Shown: positions 48,887 through 55,696, numbered from the stretch's first letter. The stretch is 64,000 bases of DNA from an uncultured Acidobacteriota bacterium (GCA_963822445.1 CAWGHO010000002.1:1760001-1824000), one strand, 5' to 3'. The notes: generated by a model from the sequence alone, not told the origin. Program-made: numbers and translations.

Positions 48887-50145
48887 GCCGCGCTCCGATC
48901 GGGTACGAAGAGGCTGGTCACGCGATTCTCCGGAATGAGGTACTTGCGCGCGACGTGGGCGAGATCGTCGGCCGTCGCTGAGCGATAGGGATCGAGCCAG
49001 CGCTCGATGAGATGCGGATCGTCGAAGTAGGTCGACATCATGCCCAGGAGGTCGGCGCGTGCGTCGAAGGTCTCCAGTTGATGCGCATAATCGACTTCCG
49101 CACGATTCTTCGCCCGCGTCAGCTCATCCTCGGAGATCCCGGAAACGGCCACGTTCGCAATCTCTTCATCGATCGCCGATTCGATCGCTTCGATGGTCAC
49201 GCCTTCGCGCGCCGTGGCCTGCAGCAGCAGCAGTCCCGTCGCTTCGGTCGGCAGCACGTACATGGCCACATCCTGGGCGATCTGTTTTTCGTGCACGAGG
49301 ATGCGATCGAGACGGCTCGCTTTGTCGGAGGCGAGGATGGTGCTGAGGAGGTCACTGTGGATCCAGTCCCGCTCGCCCATCTTCGGCAGGTGATAGAGCC
49401 GGTAGATGCGCGGGAGCTGGACCGGTGACTCGAACGTCTCGCGCTTTTCGTGAGAGGCGGGCGTGCGCGTCGCTTCGAATTTCGGGAACGAGCCGCCGGG
49501 CTGGATGTCGGAGAAGTACTGGTCGACGAGTCGCTTCGCTTCGTCAGGCGAGAAGTCGCCGACGATCGTCAAGGTCGCGTTGTCGGGGCGATACCAGGTC
49601 GCGAAGAACTCGCGGATGTCGTCGAGCGATGCCGCGCCGAGGTCTTCCATCGAGCCGATGGTCGGCCAGTGGTAGGAGTACTCGGGATCGAACGCGAGAT
49701 GCAGCAGGCGCTCGAAGGCCGTGCCGTACGGAACGTTGTCGTAGCGCTGCCGCCGCTCTTCCTTGACGACCTCGCGCTGTATGTCGAGCTTCTCCTGAGT
49801 CAGCGCGGGGAGAAAGAAGCCCATGCGATCGGACTCGAGCCAGAGGCCGAGGGCGAGGTAATTGGAGGGAAGGGTCTCGAAGTAGTTGGTGCGGTCGAAG
49901 AAGGTCGTGCCATTGAGCACGCCGCCGACCGACTGCACGTAGCGGAAATGCTCGTTGTTGCCGACGTGCTCGGAGCCGGAAAAGAGCATGTGCTCGAACA
50001 GGTGCGCGAAGCCGGTGCGGCCGGGCCGCTCGTTCTTCGAGCCGACGTGGTACCAGAGGTTGACGGCGACGAGCGGGGCGGAGTGGTCTTCGTTCAGGAC
50101 GACGCGGAGGCCGTTGTCTAGTTTGTAAGTGTCGAGCGAGAGCAT
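48883..50145 (-). CDS. M16 (pitrilysin) peptidase, catalytic subunit
   Basis: GFAHLFEH inverted zinc motif, EERR. Confidence 0.92.
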   Translation of the reverse strand: MLSLDTYKLDNGLRVVLNEDHSAPLVAVNLWYHVGSKNERPGRTGFAHLFEHMLFSGSEHVGNNEHFRYVQSVGGVLNGTTFFDRTNYFETLPSNYLALGLWLESDRMGFFLPALTQEKLDIQREVVKEERRQRYDNVPYGTAFERLLHLAFDPEYSYHWPTIGSMEDLGAASLDDIREFFATWYRPDNATLTIVGDFSPDEAKRLVDQYFSDIQPGGSFPKFEATRTPASHEKRETFESPVQLPRIYRLYHLPKMGERDWIHSDLLSTILASDKASRLDRILVHEKQIAQDVAMYVLPTEATGLLLLQATAREGVTIEAIESAIDEEIANVAVSGISEDELTRAKNRAEVDYAHQLETFDARADLLGMMSTYFDDPHLIERWLDPYRSATADDLAHVARKYLIPENRVTSLFVPDRSAA

Positions 50146-50166
50146 CGGTCGGGGTTTTTATCACGA

Positions 50167-50247
50167 GGAGTCGCAAAGTCTCAGAGTCTCAAAGTCTCAA
50201 AGGAGGTTCTTCTCTGCGACTTTGCGACTTTGAGACTCTGAGACTCC
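50167..50247. repeat. Inverted arrays of octamer AGTC(T/G)CA(A/G)
   Basis: GAGTCGCAAAGTCTCAGAGTCTCAAAGTCTCAAAG ... CTCTGCGACTTTGCGACTTTGAGACTCTGAGACTC. Confidence 0.75.
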
Positions 50248-50269
50248 CATCGTTTATCCTTCCGCCCGC

Positions 50270-50914
50270 GTGAGTACATCGCTCCCATGGCGCCACGTCG
50301 CCATCGAAGGTCCCATCGGAGTCGGCAAGACTTCGCTGACCAACCTTCTGGCCAAGCGCTTCCGGGGGACGAAGGTGCTGTCGGACGTTGAGAATCCCTT
50401 TCTCGACGACTTCTACAAAGACAAGCGCGGGGCGGCGTTCCGGACGGAGCTGTACTTCCTGCTGTCGCGGTTCGATCAGCAGCGGCACATGACCCAGCGC
50501 GACCTGTTCACCGAGCTGATCCTCGCGGACTACACCTTCGCCAAGAGCAGGATTTTTGCGTATCTGACGCTCGATGACTCGGAGCTGATGATCTACAACC
50601 GGATGTACGACCTGCTCTCCGAGCAGGTGCCCAAGCCGGACCTGGTCATTTATCTGCAGGGCAGTCTTGATACACTGTCGAAGCGCATCAAGAAGCGTGG
50701 GCGGGCTTACGAAAAAGCGATCTCGCCCTCGTATTTACAGGAGCTCAGCGAGGCGTACTCGCACTACTTTTACCGGTACGACGAGACGCCGTTGCTGGTT
50801 GTGAATACGAACGAGATCGATTTCGTTAACACGCCCGAGCATTTCGACCAGCTCGTCGAGCAGATCGGAAAAGCTCAAAAGGGAACTCAGTACTACGTAC
50901 CGCTTGGATCCTGA
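50270..50914 (+). CDS. Deoxynucleoside kinase
   Basis: IEGPIGVGKT P-loop, NPFLDDFY, KPDLVIYL; usual position upstream of panB. Confidence 0.88.
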   Translation: MSTSLPWRHVAIEGPIGVGKTSLTNLLAKRFRGTKVLSDVENPFLDDFYKDKRGAAFRTELYFLLSRFDQQRHMTQRDLFTELILADYTFAKSRIFAYLTLDDSELMIYNRMYDLLSEQVPKPDLVIYLQGSLDTLSKRIKKRGRAYEKAISPSYLQELSEAYSHYFYRYDETPLLVVNTNEIDFVNTPEHFDQLVEQIGKAQKGTQYYVPLGS

Positions 50915-50994
50915 GTAGACGGACCGGGACGAGAACGTGGGCAACGCGGGCGCCAGCCCGCCTACCCGCTCCTTCTCCCTGTCCAGAAGGAGCG
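50896..50994 (+). ncRNA. panB leader: pan-motif-like stem plus SD-sequestering hairpin
   Basis: CGCTTGG(A)TCC/GGACCGGG(A)CG stem with two bulged A; CGCTCCTTCT/AGAAGGAGCG 10-bp stem covering the SD. Confidence 0.6.
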
Positions 50995-50996
50995 AG

Positions 50997-51887
50997 ATGA
51001 ACCCGAAGAAGAAGGTCACCGTCCCGGCGATCCGCGCCATGAAGTCGAAGGCGCGCATCGGAATGCTCACGGCATACGACTACCCCTCGGCCAAGATCGC
51101 CGACGCGGCGGGCGCGGACATCCTCCTGGTCGGCGATTCGCTGGGCATGGTCGTTCTCGGCTATCCCGACACGCTCAGCGTGACCGTCGAGGACATGCTC
51201 CATCACACCCGCGCGGTCGTCCGTGGCGCGAAGACCGCGCTGATCGTCGGGGACATGCCCTATCTCTCGTACCACGTGTCGCTCGAGGAGTCCGTTCGCA
51301 ACGCCGGCCATTTCATTCAGGCCGGCGCGCACGCGGTGAAGGTCGAGGGCGCGAAGGCTTCGCGGATCAAGACCATCGAAGCGATTCTCGACGCCGAGAT
51401 CCCGGTCATGGGCCACATCGGTCTCACACCGCAATCGGTCAACGCTCTCGGCGGATTCAAGCTGCAGGGAAAGAACGCCGACGACGCGCGGCGCCTGCTC
51501 GACGAGGCCGTTGCTCTCGAGCGCGCAGGCTGCTTCTCGCTCGTGCTCGAATGCGTCCCGACCGAGCTCGCGGCGATGATCACCGAGCAGATCACCATTC
51601 CCACCATCGGCATCGGTGCCGGCCCGTCCTGCGACGGGCAGGTCCTCGTCTACCACGACGTCCTCGGCATGTACGACGGCCACACGCCCAAGTTCGTGCG
51701 CAAATACGCGAATGCCGCGGTTGACCTGCAGAAGGCGCTCGAAGCGTTTCTGTCCGATGTGCGCGACGGCAGCTTCCCGAATGACGACTCGGAGTCTTTC
51801 CACATGGCCAGCGATGAAGAGCTGAAGCGACTCTACGCGGCGCGTGACGAGGGCGGCGTGGTCGTGGAGATGCCGAAAGCGAATTGA
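50997..51887 (+). CDS. panB: 3-methyl-2-oxobutanoate hydroxymethyltransferase
   Basis: MLTAYD, LVGDSLGM, GHIGLTPQ, IGIGAG, DGQVLV. Confidence 0.97.
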   Translation: MNPKKKVTVPAIRAMKSKARIGMLTAYDYPSAKIADAAGADILLVGDSLGMVVLGYPDTLSVTVEDMLHHTRAVVRGAKTALIVGDMPYLSYHVSLEESVRNAGHFIQAGAHAVKVEGAKASRIKTIEAILDAEIPVMGHIGLTPQSVNALGGFKLQGKNADDARRLLDEAVALERAGCFSLVLECVPTELAAMITEQITIPTIGIGAGPSCDGQVLVYHDVLGMYDGHTPKFVRKYANAAVDLQKALEAFLSDVRDGSFPNDDSESFHMASDEELKRLYAARDEGGVVVEMPKAN

Positions 51888-52735
51888 TGCGGGTTGCGAC
51901 GACGATCGAGGAAACGCGCCATGCCGTACGCGTCGCGCGTACGCACGGCGCGACCATCGGTTTCGTGCCGACCATGGGCTTTCTGCATGCGGGTCACATC
52001 TCGCTGATCGACGTCGCCCGCGAGGCCGGTGCGACGTTCATCGCCGTGTCGATCTTCGTGAATCCGAAGCAGTTCGGGCCGACCGAGGACTTCAGCCGTT
52101 ACCCGCGCGACGAGGAACGCGATCGCGCGCTGCTGGAGAAAGCCGGCGTCGACCTGCTGTTCCTGCCGCCGGTCGAAGTGATGTATCCGGCCGGCGCGGC
52201 GACGACGATCTCCGTTTCGACGGTGGCAAAGCCGCTGGAAGGCGAGCGGCGTCCCGGGCATTTCGACGGTGTGGCCACGGTCGTGGCGAAGCTCTTCAAC
52301 ATCGTGCAGGCCGACGTGGCCGCGTTCGGACGGAAAGACGCGCAGCAGTGCGCGGTGATCGAGCGGATGGTGCGCGATCTCGATCTGCCGGTGCGGCTCA
52401 TGTTCGGCGAGACGCTGCGCGAGCACGACGGCTTGGCCATGTCCTCGCGGAACAGCTATCTGTCGGCCGAAGAGCGGGGGAAGGCGCCGGTTCTGCATCG
52501 GGCGTTGCGCGCGGGAGAAGAAGCCATAACGCACGGGATTCATGAAGTGGCAGGGGTCGAGAAGCTGATGAATCGTGTGGTCAGTGAAGAGGGTGGCGTC
52601 GAGGTCGACTATCTGGCGGTCGTCGATCCGCTGACGTTCGAAGCGCCGCAGGATTTCGATCGCGAAGTGTTGCTCGCCGGCGCGGTGAAGATCGGCCGGA
52701 CGCGCCTGATCGACAACATCCGGGTGCGCGCATGA
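51887..52735 (+). CDS. panC: Pantoate--beta-alanine ligase
   Basis: VPTMGFLHAGH, RPGHFDGV, GLAMSSRN, RLIDN. Confidence 0.96.
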   Translation: MRVATTIEETRHAVRVARTHGATIGFVPTMGFLHAGHISLIDVAREAGATFIAVSIFVNPKQFGPTEDFSRYPRDEERDRALLEKAGVDLLFLPPVEVMYPAGAATTISVSTVAKPLEGERRPGHFDGVATVVAKLFNIVQADVAAFGRKDAQQCAVIERMVRDLDLPVRLMFGETLREHDGLAMSSRNSYLSAEERGKAPVLHRALRAGEEAITHGIHEVAGVEKLMNRVVSEEGGVEVDYLAVVDPLTFEAPQDFDREVLLAGAVKIGRTRLIDNIRVRA

Positions 52736-53070
52736 TGCGGCGCCTCGTTCGCGCCGCGGTTCAGAACGCGACCGTGACGCACGGCAGCGCGCTCACCCTG
52801 CGCATCGATCCGCTGATTCTGCGCGCCGCGAACATCCTGCCGCTCGAAGAAGTGGAGATCGTCAATCACGCGACCGGTGAGCGGGTCACCACGTTCGCCG
52901 AAGAAGCAGCCGGCGGTGAAGTGCACGCGCCGCGGATGCGAGCCGGCGACGTGATCAGCATCGTCTCCTGGGGCGTGCTGCACGATGGGCAGACGCTGAA
53001 TCACAGCGCAAAGCTGGTGACGCTTGACGGGAAGAACGAAGTGACGGTTATCGACGAGCGAAATCGATAA
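52732..53070 (+). CDS. panD: Degenerate aspartate 1-decarboxylase homolog
   Basis: Follows panC; aligns with PanD (ATVTH, ID, AANILPLEEV, GERVTTF, GDVISI) but lacks most catalytic motifs. Confidence 0.7.
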   Translation: MMRRLVRAAVQNATVTHGSALTLRIDPLILRAANILPLEEVEIVNHATGERVTTFAEEAAGGEVHAPRMRAGDVISIVSWGVLHDGQTLNHSAKLVTLDGKNEVTVIDERNR

Positions 53071-54520
53071 AGCCGCGCTCCACATCGACGTCGAGCAGCT
53101 TCACCTTCACCCGGTCGCCGATATCCAGCCCCTTGCCGCCGCGCACGACCTTCCCTTCGACCGGCGGATGGAAGACGCGGACCCAGGTGCCCTTCGCGGA
53201 CGCGCCGGTGACCACGCCCTCGAAATGGTCGCCGATGCGGTCGCCAAGGAGACAGGCGGCGGCGGATTTGCGAACCTGGCGCTCGACTTTGTTCGCCTCG
53301 TCTTCCTGATCGGTACAGTGCTGCGCGAGCTCGGCCAGCTCGTCGAACGTGTACGGCGACGGTTTGCCCGCGAGAGCCGCTTTGACCATCCGGTGGGTGA
53401 TCAGATCGGGATAGCGGCGGTTCGGTGCCGTGGAGTGCGTGTAGTCCTTCACCGCGAGACCGAAATGGCCGGTGGGCTTCTGATCTGCTCGCTCCACGAC
53501 GTACTCACCGGCGCCCATGGCCTTGACCACCGACAGCGAGAGATCGGGAAAGCGCATCGGATCGGCTTTGCGCTGCCTGCGCAGGAACTCCTCCAGCGCC
53601 TTCGCATCCGGCTCCGGCGGCAACCGCTCGCCACGATCCTCGGCGATCTTCTCGATCCGATCCCAGCGCTCCGGCGACCGCACGACGCGGCGGATGCTGG
53701 GCAGTTTGTGCTTCACCAGGAACCGCGCGGTGGTGCCGTTCGCGGCGATCATGAAGTCTTCGATGAGCAGGCGGGCGTTGTTGCGGCGGGCCTGCTTCAG
53801 CTCGACGACCTTGCCGTCGACGATGACCGGACGCGCTTCGATGGTTTCCAGATCGAGCGCGCCCTGTTCGTGACGCAGGTCGCGCATGCGATCGGCGGTG
53901 CGGTCCTGCAGGCGTAGTGCTTCCGCCAATCCTTCGACTCTCGTGACTTTTTCCGGCTCGTCCTGTTCGCCGTCGAGCCACGCCGCCACGCGGTCGTACG
54001 CCAGCTTGGCGTGGTTGTGCACGAGCGCGCGAAAGACTTCCCCCTGTCCGATCGAGCCGTCGTCGCGCACGAGCATCTCGATGACCAGGGCCACGCGATC
54101 TTCGCCTTCGTTGAGCGAGGTGAGATCGGTGGAGAGCCGCTCCGGCAGCATGGGGAAGACCTTCGCCGCCGTGTAGATCGAGGTGGTGTTGTGCTTCGCG
54201 TGGCGATCGACAGGCGTGTCTTTCTTCACCAGCGCGTCGACGTCGGCCACGGCGATGTAGATGCGGACGTTGCCGCCGCCCTCGTCCTTGGCCCAGGTGA
54301 GCTGGTCGAGATCGCGCGAGTCGTCGTTGTCGATCGAGCACCAGCCCCAGTCGCGCAGATCGCGGATGGTTGGGTCGGTTTCGTGCGCGGGGCCGCGAAT
54401 GCCGGCCACCTGTTTTTTCACGTCGTCGTCGAACTCGTGGAGCAGGCCATGCTCGCGCATGGCGTCATTGGCGATGTCGACGAGAAAGTCTTCCTGCCTG
54501 CGATCCCTATTGCGATCCAT
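53048..54520 (-). CDS. RNB-domain exoribonuclease (RNase II/R-like)
   Basis: SIDNDDSRDLDQ, AVADV, HSTAPNRRYPDL, C-terminal S1-like domain. Confidence 0.9.
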   Translation of the reverse strand: MDRNRDRRQEDFLVDIANDAMREHGLLHEFDDDVKKQVAGIRGPAHETDPTIRDLRDWGWCSIDNDDSRDLDQLTWAKDEGGGNVRIYIAVADVDALVKKDTPVDRHAKHNTTSIYTAAKVFPMLPERLSTDLTSLNEGEDRVALVIEMLVRDDGSIGQGEVFRALVHNHAKLAYDRVAAWLDGEQDEPEKVTRVEGLAEALRLQDRTADRMRDLRHEQGALDLETIEARPVIVDGKVVELKQARRNNARLLIEDFMIAANGTTARFLVKHKLPSIRRVVRSPERWDRIEKIAEDRGERLPPEPDAKALEEFLRRQRKADPMRFPDLSLSVVKAMGAGEYVVERADQKPTGHFGLAVKDYTHSTAPNRRYPDLITHRMVKAALAGKPSPYTFDELAELAQHCTDQEDEANKVERQVRKSAAACLLGDRIGDHFEGVVTGASAKGTWVRVFHPPVEGKVVRGGKGLDIGDRVKVKLLDVDVERGFIDFARR

Positions 54521-54544
54521 GTCCGGGGACGTTATCACCGTGTC

Positions 54545-55696
54545 GTGAAAATCGTTCCGGCCGGGGACAACGCGGTGCTGATGGAGTTGGGGGACGTGAC
54601 CGCGGCGGAGTTGCATGCGCGGGCAGCGGAGATGCGGTCGAAGCCGGGAGTGCTCGCCGTGATTCCGGGGCACTCGTCGCTGTACGTTTTGGAGTGCGGC
54701 GGCAGAGCCGCCGCTTTCAAAGCGGCAGCAGAGCTGCCGCACTCCATCCATCGAGTCAAAGTCAGGTTCGACGGTCCGGATGTGCCCCCTGGCTTCATAC
54801 CCCGACCAATAACGCTCACCGTCCGCTACCTCGGCTTCCGCGGCGGCTTCGGCTACCTCGACGGCTGGCCCGAGGAATGGGCAATGCCCCGAAAATCCAC
54901 CTCGCGACCGGTGAGCCGCGGCTCGTTCGCCATCGCGGGCAATGTCGCCGGCTTCTATCCCATCGACTCGCCCGGCGGCTGGAACATCCTCGGCCACACC
55001 GATTACGACGTCGCCTACGCGCTCGCGCCTGGCGACACGATCGAGATCGAGCCGACCGATGAGCCGCTGGCGTTGCCGCCGTTGCGCGAGATCTCACGCC
55101 CCTCACTGCACACGCCCGTGTTTCCGCCGGACTGGTCCCGCGTGCAGCGCGGCATGCCGCCGGGCGGTCCGTTCGATGACGTGGCCGCGGCGATGATCGA
55201 CGCCCCGGAGCTGATCGAATGCGCGATGGTCTGGCCGAAGCTCGAGGGTGTGTGGGTGGGGCCGGATCTGCGAACGGGCTACGTCGTACCGACTGGGAAA
55301 ATTGAAGGCGGGTTGCGCGGGTATGTCGGGTGTGGTGCAGGCCTCCGGCCTGCCCCAGCGCTACCACGTGGCGATCGCTTCACCATCCAAGCCATGCGCG
55401 GCCCGCACGACATCGGTCTGGATCGCATCGAATGTGAAGTAACGCCGCAGCTCGATCGCGTCGGAATCCGCTTGCGACCGTTGATGCCGATCGCCAACAA
55501 ACCGCCGGCCGACCTGAAATCGATCGGCATGCAATGCGGGACGCTGCAGCTGCATCCCGACGGCAGCGTCGTGGCCATGGGACCGGATCATCCGGTCACC
55601 GGTGGTTACCTGCAGCCGATGACGGTCATCACCACGGAACGGTGGAAGCTCGCCCAGCTTTCTCCGGGCGAGCGCGTCACCTTCATCGCGATTTAG
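54545..55696 (+). CDS. Compact PxpB-PxpC (5-oxoprolinase/allophanate hydrolase subunit) fusion
   Basis: PAGDNAVL, GFRGGFGYL, YPIDSPGGWNILG (PxpB); PPGGPFD, DRVGIRL, GPDHPVTGGY (PxpC). Confidence 0.8.
   Translation: MKIVPAGDNAVLMELGDVTAAELHARAAEMRSKPGVLAVIPGHSSLYVLECGGRAAAFKAAAELPHSIHRVKVRFDGPDVPPGFIPRPITLTVRYLGFRGGFGYLDGWPEEWAMPRKSTSRPVSRGSFAIAGNVAGFYPIDSPGGWNILGHTDYDVAYALAPGDTIEIEPTDEPLALPPLREISRPSLHTPVFPPDWSRVQRGMPPGGPFDDVAAAMIDAPELIECAMVWPKLEGVWVGPDLRTGYVVPTGKIEGGLRGYVGCGAGLRPAPALPRGDRFTIQAMRGPHDIGLDRIECEVTPQLDRVGIRLRPLMPIANKPPADLKSIGMQCGTLQLHPDGSVVAMGPDHPVTGGYLQPMTVITTERWKLAQLSPGERVTFIAI
54690..54746. repeat. Family A REP pair, in-frame inside pxpBC
   Basis: TGGAGTGCGGCGGCAGAGCCGCCGCTTT-C-AAAGCGGCAGCAGAGCTGCCGCACTCCA, 57 nt. 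Confidence 0.85.

Follow-up and report, generated by a model that had tools for sequence, protein, structure and literature searches.

A single-hairpin pan-type leader and a predicted PanD pseudoenzyme in a pantothenate operon of Thermoanaerobaculia

The window analysed here, a stretch of 64,000 nucleotides (GCA_963822445.1, CAWGHO010000002.1:1760001-1824000), comes from a Thermoanaerobaculia (Acidobacteriota) genome and carries the gene order dNK-panB-panC-panD′, with all four genes on the plus strand; dNK codes for a deoxynucleoside kinase family protein and panD′ for a PanD homologue, PanD′. Two features of this operon were studied: a leader with a single pan-type RNA hairpin (P1) ahead of panB, and PanD′ itself, which appears to be catalytically dead. 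The reading that we find the most probable, with some reserve, is that both features are real, that they evolved independently, and that they are not obligatory partners. PanD′ would descend from the lineage's own canonical PanD, and its pyruvoyl-forming and catalytic residues would have been lost once, early in the family. It would make no beta-alanine, which may be supplied by a reductive pyrimidine pathway encoded elsewhere in the genome, and purifying selection would maintain it for an accessory role that is dispensable. That this role is ligand binding or regulation in pantothenate synthesis is a guess.

P1 with its outer helix spans positions 50893-50940 of the plus strand, as deduced from the cmscan alignment to the Rfam pan model RF01749 and from RNAfold. 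The core (50901-50931) consists of two arms, 50901-50911 and 50921-50931, which form 11 pairs and leave two bulged adenosines, A50908 and A50929; the outer helix is formed by 50893-50898 paired with 50935-50940. The 5′ arm is made of the final four dNK codons (P-L-G-S), and the loop (50912-50920) opens with the dNK stop codon TGA (50912-50914). When the segment 50890-51002 was folded with RNAfold, exactly three adjacent hairpins were obtained (-49.3 kcal/mol, z = -2.94), and one of 200 shuffled sequences was equally stable. P1 is followed by P2, a variable middle hairpin of 6 bp predicted by RNAfold at 50946-50961 (plus strand), and by P3, a perfect 10-bp hairpin at 50967-50994 (plus strand), in which the strand complementary to the Shine-Dalgarno (SD) sequence, 50967-50976, pairs with 50985-50994. 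An earlier note on this DNA had described a stem with two bulged A, a small hairpin and a perfect 10-bp hairpin covering the SD sequence; all three were recovered at the same positions, also by RNAfold. Its suggestion that the leader carries the pan motif holds for the bulged-A hairpin and fails at the level of the model score. The only notable Rfam match was indeed pan (RF01749), at 50845-50935 (E = 1.5); its 18.1 bits fall short of the gathering score, which is 36.2. P1 matches the second hairpin of the model (positions ~60-88) almost base for base, both unpaired A included. Two things keep the score low. The stretch set against the first hairpin of the tandem model (50845-50870, plus strand) falls inside the dNK coding sequence and pairs poorly, with non-standard pairs, so that it is not supported as a real element; and nothing in the window alignment corresponds to the A/U-rich linker. 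The tandem two-hairpin arrangement, which most pan members have and some do not, is absent from the window, where there is a single hairpin only. By the published description P1 would be one pan RNA; by the Rfam threshold it does not count as one.

RF01749 was matched at E ≤ 10 in 26 of 41 related genomes, and over the cut-off in none of them. In 17 of the 20 genomes of the genus with such a match, the source genome (G000) included, only model positions ~60-88 were covered; full-model scores of 24-27.5 bits were obtained with three sister-family genomes of the order and one genome of another family of the class (G025, G026, G027 and G035). An exact P1 pattern, with both arms fixed and a loop of 3-14 nt, was also searched, and the reversed pattern served as a control. 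The exact arms were present in 89 of 301 class genomes, nearly always once per genome, and in 64 of 72 genomes of the family, while the reversed control gave 0 matches. Most of the compared genomes are metagenome assemblies, so that here and below "no match" means not found in the assembled part. The tallies include five unpublished genomes (G002, G041, G030, G202 and G164), and no conclusion rests on those alone: G002 belongs to the 11 genomes that have the hairpin and lack PanD, G030 to the four that lack PanD and have a dihydropyrimidinase, and locus L078 (G202) is one row of the 62-sequence hairpin alignment, all of which are described below. The order dNK-hairpin-panB was observed in all 20 loci fetched around RF01749 matches. 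Among 30 loci fetched by pattern, panB lies directly downstream of the hairpin in 28, the exceptions being one contig edge and L084, which has no pan gene; synteny with dNK was counted in 29 of the 30. Of 7 loci fetched from other families of the class, 5 have panB behind the hairpin; in the remaining two, L124 and L126, the conserved CCGC prefix is absent, and these resemble chance matches. Outside the class a relaxed pattern matched 9 further genomes, and one of the six fetched (G395) has the order dNK-hairpin-panB-panC. Within the family the dNK stop codon is always at the start of the loop, mostly as TGA, as TAA after an extra Lys codon in G053, and as TAG or TAA after an extra Arg codon in G100 and G300. 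One genome, G126, has two hairpin-panB loci, L075 on contig C34 and L114 on contig C98. One of these has dNK and the loop TGA; the other has a different loop, panC and a partly eroded PanD, and may reflect a panB duplication or contamination.

The panD′ gene (52732-53070, plus strand) codes for a 112-residue protein that matches PF02261 (Asp_decarbox) with 50.1 bits against a cut-off of 25. With the panD equivalog model TIGR00223 it scored 42.4 bits, the cut-off being 106. Lys9, His11, Tyr58 and the Asn72-Gly-Ala-Ala-Ala loop are active-site residues of PanD. Gly24-Ser25 is the self-cleavage site that gives the pyruvoyl group (PMC4537548, in the part available). When PanD′ was aligned with solved PanD chains and canonical relatives, Ala9 was found in place of Lys9 and Gln11 in place of His11; a 3-residue deletion removes Tyr22, and Leu21-Thr22 replace Gly24-Ser25; Phe55 stands for Tyr58, and a 5-residue deletion removes N-G-A of the NGAAA motif. 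Lys9, His11, Tyr58 and NGAAA are all intact in 9 relatives from the class, out of 11 non-degenerate rows of which two are partly eroded. The set of close homologues comprised 120 listed representatives of 90% identity clusters, 71-100% identical to PanD′ and drawn from 337 matches; close homologues bear source names from Thermoanaerobaculia and Acidobacteriota. The catalytic set is absent from all 120: Ala9 is present in 118, Gln or Arg at position 11, Phe55 in 119 and both deletions in 120. The residue aligned with Ser25 is Thr in 109, Asn in 4, Ser in 3 and Ala in 3, and A or S further out in the family; it varies, so that no nucleophile is conserved. Residues equivalent to Arg54 and Thr57 are kept, as R51 in 116 and T54 in 117 of the 120. 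An AlphaFold2 model built from a 69-row alignment had a predicted local distance difference test score (pLDDT) of 95.9 and a predicted template modelling score (pTM) of 0.87, and its best Foldseek matches were unprocessed PanD chains, with template modelling (TM) scores of 0.86-0.91 and a root-mean-square deviation of 1.4-1.9 Å. Proteins of this type are named aspartate 1-decarboxylase by public sources.

Alignment thus agrees with the residue losses reported in the earlier note, namely Lys9 and His11 replaced by A and Q, Phe for Tyr58 and no NGAAA. The same note had placed Leu-Thr at the Gly24-Ser25 site, which is correct, and had pointed to an upstream GS as a displaced site, which did not stand: position 19 is Glu in 45, Asp in 32, Asn in 17 and Gly in 15 of the 120 representatives, so that G18-S19 of the window is not conserved and therefore is not a displaced cleavage site. 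The open reading frame (ORF) is intact and coupled to panC, as had been noticed, its ATG overlapping the panC stop codon (ATGA). The degenerate form is conserved in relatives and under purifying selection, and a search of the genome for a canonical panD returned no PF02261 match besides PanD′. The combination of a missing cleavage site, missing catalytic residues, an intact ORF and a ratio of nonsynonymous to synonymous substitution rates (dN/dS) of ~0.28 agrees with the idea, put forward in that note, of a pseudoenzyme. That PanD′ is a conserved pseudoenzyme as to pyruvoyl-dependent aspartate decarboxylation is, as judged from its sequence, well supported. No description of catalytically dead PanD homologues was found in the literature searched, which did not cover subscription-journal papers.

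In a maximum-likelihood tree of 39 sequences the 28 degenerate ones fell on one side of a 100/100 branch (total length ~1.3 changes per site), the groups having been defined by how identical they are to the query, a measure that is itself correlated with degeneracy. The family contains a series of erosion stages: genus g23 lost all catalytic residues and kept both loop lengths, others are intermediate, and the genus of the window has both deletions. Within this genus the median pairwise dN/dS of panD′ was 0.28 (NG86; 11 sequences, 55 pairs, median dS 0.75), and those of its neighbours were 0.14 for panB, 0.20 for panC and 0.09 for dNK. Positions specific to the clade are Arg24, Thr48 and an H-x-G-Q-T-L motif, the latter partly present in the nearest canonical relatives. 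A search of 1.84 billion 50%-identity representatives gave 76 matches at E ≤ 0.001. Among 62 of these (95-200 residues, approximate alignment), 21 lack Lys9, and therefore the dead PanD homologues form a diverse group; 19 of the 21 also lack Gly-Ser, and 17 keep the Arg54 equivalent.

PanD′ is dispensable, yet conserved where it is kept. A PF02261 match is present in 21 of 35 genomes of the genus (14 of 35 have none), and in 17 of 25 among those that are ≥90% complete and ≤5% contaminated. With the PanD′ protein as query, 74 of 111 family genomes gave a match, nearly all without an internal stop codon, and 37 of 111 gave none. By identity band, 61 of the 74 are of the degenerate type (39-100% identity, four of them partial) and 13 lie at ≤37%. 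Four of these 13 were inspected: G067 and G141 have a fully canonical PanD, and G126 and G071 a partly eroded one. In the latter two (L114 and L115, respectively) Lys9 is changed to Arg and His11 to Glu or Asp, Gly24 is lost and Ser25 is kept, and in G126 the NGAAA loop is altered. Within the family this is a second case of partial erosion of PanD, independent of the first; in the tree the two proteins form a group (96/96) on the canonical side. Deletions of panD′ were found in G003, G013, G017, G053 and G264, where panC is followed after 60-150 nt by the convergent gene for an exoribonuclease with an RNB domain. Short remnants also occur, e.g., a 45-residue frame in G063, and in G079 panD′ lies 13 kb from panBC.

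These losses bring to mind that PanD′ may be a functionless relic on its way to disappearance, its conservation being a time lag. The lack of the gene in 14 of 35 genomes of the genus and in 37 of 111 of the family, with deletions and remnants, a dN/dS above that of the neighbouring genes, and conserved positions that belong mainly to the fold core are all compatible with this explanation. Nevertheless, a dN/dS of 0.28 is far below 1, nearly all 74 matches are free of internal stop codons, and all 120 clusters at 90% identity keep the same signature. The clade is also old, with a single origin, a divergence to ~40-50% identity across many genera and a fold that is still confidently predicted. 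We consider a relic unlikely.

If PanD′ makes no beta-alanine, gene content suggests another source. A dihydropyrimidinase (TIGR02033, 637.5 bits, cut-off 393) is encoded in a pyrimidine cluster detected by profile matches on contig C2 of the source genome (2266970-2289400; loci L057 and L060). Directly downstream lies a CN-hydrolase gene, whose product is nearest to N-carbamoylputrescine amidase (248 bits, below the cut-off of that model). A class-III aminotransferase, an NCS1 nucleobase transporter and a PreA-like subunit of dihydropyrimidine dehydrogenase (312.6 bits, cut-off 335) are encoded within 10 kb of the dihydropyrimidinase, and a gene for an aldehyde dehydrogenase lies ~19 kb from it. 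Only residues 5-314 of the 459-residue aminotransferase ORF are covered by matches to its families, which suggests a frameshift or an assembly error. A carbamoylase of the AmaB type, as in Rhizobium etli, was considered and rejected (best TIGR01879 score 35.6 bits, cut-off 204), and the CN-hydrolase is preferred. Dihydropyrimidinase is present in 23 of 24 genomes of the genus. Among 16 relatives from outside the genus it is over the cut-off in all four without a PanD match, vs 3 of 12 with a canonical PanD, two of these three being the sister-family genomes G025 and G026. This pattern fits redundancy first and loss of catalysis second, the genomes compared being kin and not independent. Together these genes make up the set for reductive pyrimidine degradation, a pathway that ends in beta-alanine and supplies it in R. 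etli, which lacks PanD (PMC7142369, in the part available). Like R. etli, the window genome has panB and panC, no working panD and a reductive pyrimidine pathway; in R. etli, as far as that part of the source goes, panD is simply absent and the amidohydrolase is of the AmaB type, whereas in the window genome a dead copy is retained and the candidate enzyme is of the CN-hydrolase type.

P3 covers the panB ribosome-binding site AGAAGGAG (50985-50992), just 5′ of the panB ATG at 50997. Pairing of this site was scored in the 51 nt ending at the start codon, and a site was counted as paired if at least 75% of it was paired to an upstream strand. By this measure 58 of 61 long panB leaders have a paired ribosome-binding site (54 of 57 when the four loci that were fetched twice are counted once), vs 194 of 398 other genes of the genome with a recognisable site; when an added free energy of ≤ -13 kcal/mol was demanded, the numbers were 48 of 61 leaders and 100 of 398 control genes. 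Among 20 folded leaders (that of the window and 19 from relatives), hardly any two have a P2 of the same sequence and length; it reaches up to ~30 bp, and short tandem repeats often build it. Its stem in relatives is frequently long and near-perfect (e.g., L032 861-1010, L036, L037, L038, L043 and L045), with a purine-rich 5′ arm of GAUGAAC- or GGAUGA-like units and a pyrimidine-rich 3′ arm, which resemble ribosome-binding-site and anti-SD sequences. This hypervariability looks like rapid expansion by slippage. Four leaders (L065, L069, L074 and L119) have neither P2 nor P3; their start codon follows P1 by 2-10 nt, and in three of them GGAGG overlaps the base of P1. We propose that P1 is a candidate operator for a trans-acting factor, most likely a protein, and that control would act on translation of panB or on the fate of its mRNA. 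P3, by holding the ribosome-binding site, could provide a default-low translational platform, and in the short leaders, from four genera, a bound factor would directly occlude the ribosome-binding site and the start codon. Any ribosome that completes dNK has to open P1, and translation of dNK may therefore have an influence as well.

If P1 binds a protein, PanD′ could be a candidate, and the earlier note had called for a test of co-occurrence between the degenerate panD and the motif. The outcome was negative. The hairpin is found upstream of panB in genomes with a canonical PanD (G025, G026, G067, G100, G128, G222, G300 and G141). Among family genomes sampled for both, 11 carry the exact hairpin but gave no match of the PanD type (G002, G014, G024, G052, G075, G083, G191, G209, G309, G313 and G317), and in G008, G053 and G264, likewise without a PanD match, the hairpin differs by one base. 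As far as these distributions tell, the function of the hairpin neither arose with PanD′ nor depends on it, and a dedicated RNA-protein pair is not supported.

A broader proposal is that the ancestral PanD had a second, non-catalytic job in pantothenate control, either binding the pan hairpin or assembling with PanB or PanC, and that PanD′ is the remnant left once beta-alanine from pyrimidines had made catalysis redundant. If this were so, proteins with the PanD fold would be the missing trans factor of a motif orphaned since 2010, and the lineages without panD′ would have lost or rewired that control. We regard this as quite unlikely. A narrower version, raised as a possibility in the earlier note, in which PanD′ is a ligand-sensing, RNA-binding regulator of the pan hairpin of its own operon, could draw on the proposal that the motif binds a dimeric protein (PMC2864571, in the part available), on the purifying selection on PanD′ without catalysis, on its usual translational coupling to panC in the operon behind the hairpin, and on the retained equivalents of Arg54 and Thr57. 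The hairpin, however, predates PanD′, as it occurs with canonical PanD in several families, and it persists in at least 13 family genomes without a PanD homologue and at clean panD′ deletions; in G079, moreover, panD′ is unlinked from panBC. PanD′ is acidic, with a median isoelectric point of 5.9 and a net charge of -3, the same as canonical relatives and with no basic shift. PanD has a double-psi beta-barrel fold, and we know of no RNA-binding member. Such a regulator is very unlikely, and the two features are better read as independent.

The hairpin could also be a by-product of coding constraint in dNK, or a site acting at the DNA level, e.g., an operator or the end of the dNK transcript. 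In most genomes its 5′ arm is coding, the loop always holds the stop codon, and there is little covariation, all of which could be taken in this sense. The same arms, on the other hand, occur without dNK upstream, with panB still downstream, in L123, L125 and L128, and therefore the RNA constrains the dNK C-terminus and not the reverse. In the alignment of 62 relatives, the third base of the dNK Pro codon (column 22, not fixed by the pattern) is invariant in all 62, while the third bases of codons further upstream vary. Both bulged A are likewise invariant in 62 of 62, most of those columns being fixed by the search pattern. One P1 pair alternates between U-A (44 sequences), U-G (16) and C-G (2); a G-C to G-U change was found in five family genomes missed by the exact pattern (G008, G053, G119, G168 and G264), and a U-G pair is flipped to G-U in G176, whose congener G149 holds the mismatched intermediate. 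G-U pairs are strand-specific and therefore favour an RNA over a DNA palindrome. With no T-run after the P1 stem, and with a P1 sequence close to the Rfam pan consensus, an origin in dNK coding or a DNA site is decidedly improbable.

That PanD′ is an aspartate decarboxylase that processes itself at Thr22 or G18-S19 is hardly credible: 109 of 120 close homologues have a Thr where Ser25 aligns and the public name is that of the enzyme, but that position is A, S or N elsewhere in the clade, G18-S19 is not conserved, Lys9, His11, Tyr22, Tyr58 and the Asn72 loop are all gone, the TIGR00223 score is less than half its cut-off, and the E. coli Ser25Thr mutant was deposited as one uncleaved chain (1pqh_A, 143 residues).

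Several observations weigh against the reading of two independent features with the functions proposed above. On the RNA side, the Rfam gathering score was reached in 0 of 41 related genomes (best 27.5 bits), and 8 of the 11 P1 pairs never vary in the 62 pattern-selected sequences. The observed covariation score was reached by 59 of 500 shuffles; the collecting pattern fixes most paired columns, and because of this the covariation statistics are uninformative. About half of the ordinary genes of this G+C-rich genome also show a paired ribosome-binding site, and the panB leaders are related and not independent, so the figures for P3 are an enrichment and not a test. A conserved alternative pairing of P1 or the linker with the anti-SD strand was sought by eye across leaders, and none that would let P1 communicate with P3 in the long leaders held across genomes; nor was a trans factor assigned to P1. 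On the protein side, positions conserved at ≥90% in the 28 family-wide PanD′ sequences belong mostly to the fold core common to canonical PanD and give little hint of a new site, and the repeated loss shows that PanD′ is dispensable. As to beta-alanine, the PreA-like and CN-hydrolase proteins are below their equivalog cut-offs, four or five group II pyridoxal phosphate-dependent decarboxylases in the genome are alternative sources, and the pyrimidine route, deduced from gene content only, is plausible.

The phyla with pan RNAs were reportedly Chloroflexi, Firmicutes and Deltaproteobacteria. In the part of the original description that was available, pan RNAs come from three phyla and are mostly in tandem, which is taken as a sign that the motif binds a dimeric protein; they are located ahead of operons for panB, panC or aspartate decarboxylase (PMC2864571, Weinberg et al. 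2010). P1 shares with RF01749 a stem with two conserved bulged A, near-consensus arms and a place upstream of a pan operon. It differs in being a single, sub-threshold hairpin, in the overlap of its 5′ arm and loop with the end and stop codon of dNK, in the hypervariable and ribosome-binding-site hairpins that follow it, and in its acidobacterial host. No relevant later work on the motif was found in the literature searched, subscription-journal papers not being covered. A single-hairpin pan variant overlapping a stop codon in Acidobacteriota is, on our analysis, apparently new. The hairpin would dictate how the unrelated dNK gene ends, in its final four codons and in the place of its stop, a clear case of overlapping RNA-structure and coding constraint, and as a minimal, near-invariant element of 31 nt, present in 89 of 301 class genomes, it is suited to phylogenetic profiling and to reporter or pull-down work on a trans factor.

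PanD′ resembles canonical PanD (PF02261/TIGR00223; PDB 1ppy, 2c45 and 1vc3) in fold, in its place after panC and in the Arg54 and Thr57 equivalents. Unlike it, PanD′ lacks Gly24-Ser25, Lys9, His11, Tyr22, Tyr58 and the NGAAA loop, has two shortened loops and scores far below the equivalog cut-off. A PanD fold engaged in non-catalytic, regulatory protein contacts in pantothenate synthesis is described for PanD-PanZ(PanM) of Enterobacteria (PMC4410942 and PMC3398536, in the parts available); the system serves as a precedent, and in those parts PanD is the active enzyme and the regulator a GNAT-fold protein. The PanD′ clade would be an undescribed, old pseudoenzyme lineage that is publicly annotated as an enzyme. 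With this annotation, metabolic reconstructions of Thermoanaerobaculia would wrongly credit PanD activity. The family also offers a natural series of a self-processing enzyme eroding into a conserved pseudoenzyme.

The source genome has 6.0 Mb in three contigs and is 94.7% complete. On the plus strand of the window, dNK occupies 50270-50914 (PF01712, 140.1 bits), panB, for ketopantoate hydroxymethyltransferase, 50997-51887 (PF02548, Pantoate_transf, 377.9 bits), and panC, for pantoate-beta-alanine ligase, 51887-52735 (PF02569, Pantoate_ligase, 336.2 bits); the panB stop codon and the panC start overlap. A scan of 50000-53400 for sigma-70-like promoters gave 0 sites, and a look-up of RNA sequencing runs for 50600-53100 gave none. 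In G079 a 331-residue unannotated ORF with no Pfam match (L121 128-1123, minus strand) overlaps the panD′ stop by 4 nt, which suggests possible translational coupling; this ORF and the other neighbours of panD′ there (SLT domain, DPBB_1, peptidase S51 and Clp ATPase) gave no functional hint. In G024 (L047 2708-3121) panD′ is replaced by a 137-residue ORF, which begins at the old ATGATG (M-M-R-R), still in overlap with the panC stop, and then runs on into an unrelated hydrophobic protein. The gap between panC and the RNB gene in G003 (L036 ~2795-2940) is a ~150-nt inverted-repeat element that looks like a miniature inverted-repeat transposable element (MITE) or a repetitive extragenic palindromic (REP) sequence. 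In the window the RNB-domain exoribonuclease gene (RNase II/R type, domain match) lies at 53048-54997 on the minus strand, convergent on panD′; its stop codon is within 23 nt of that of panD′, and the 3′ ends of both genes overlap.

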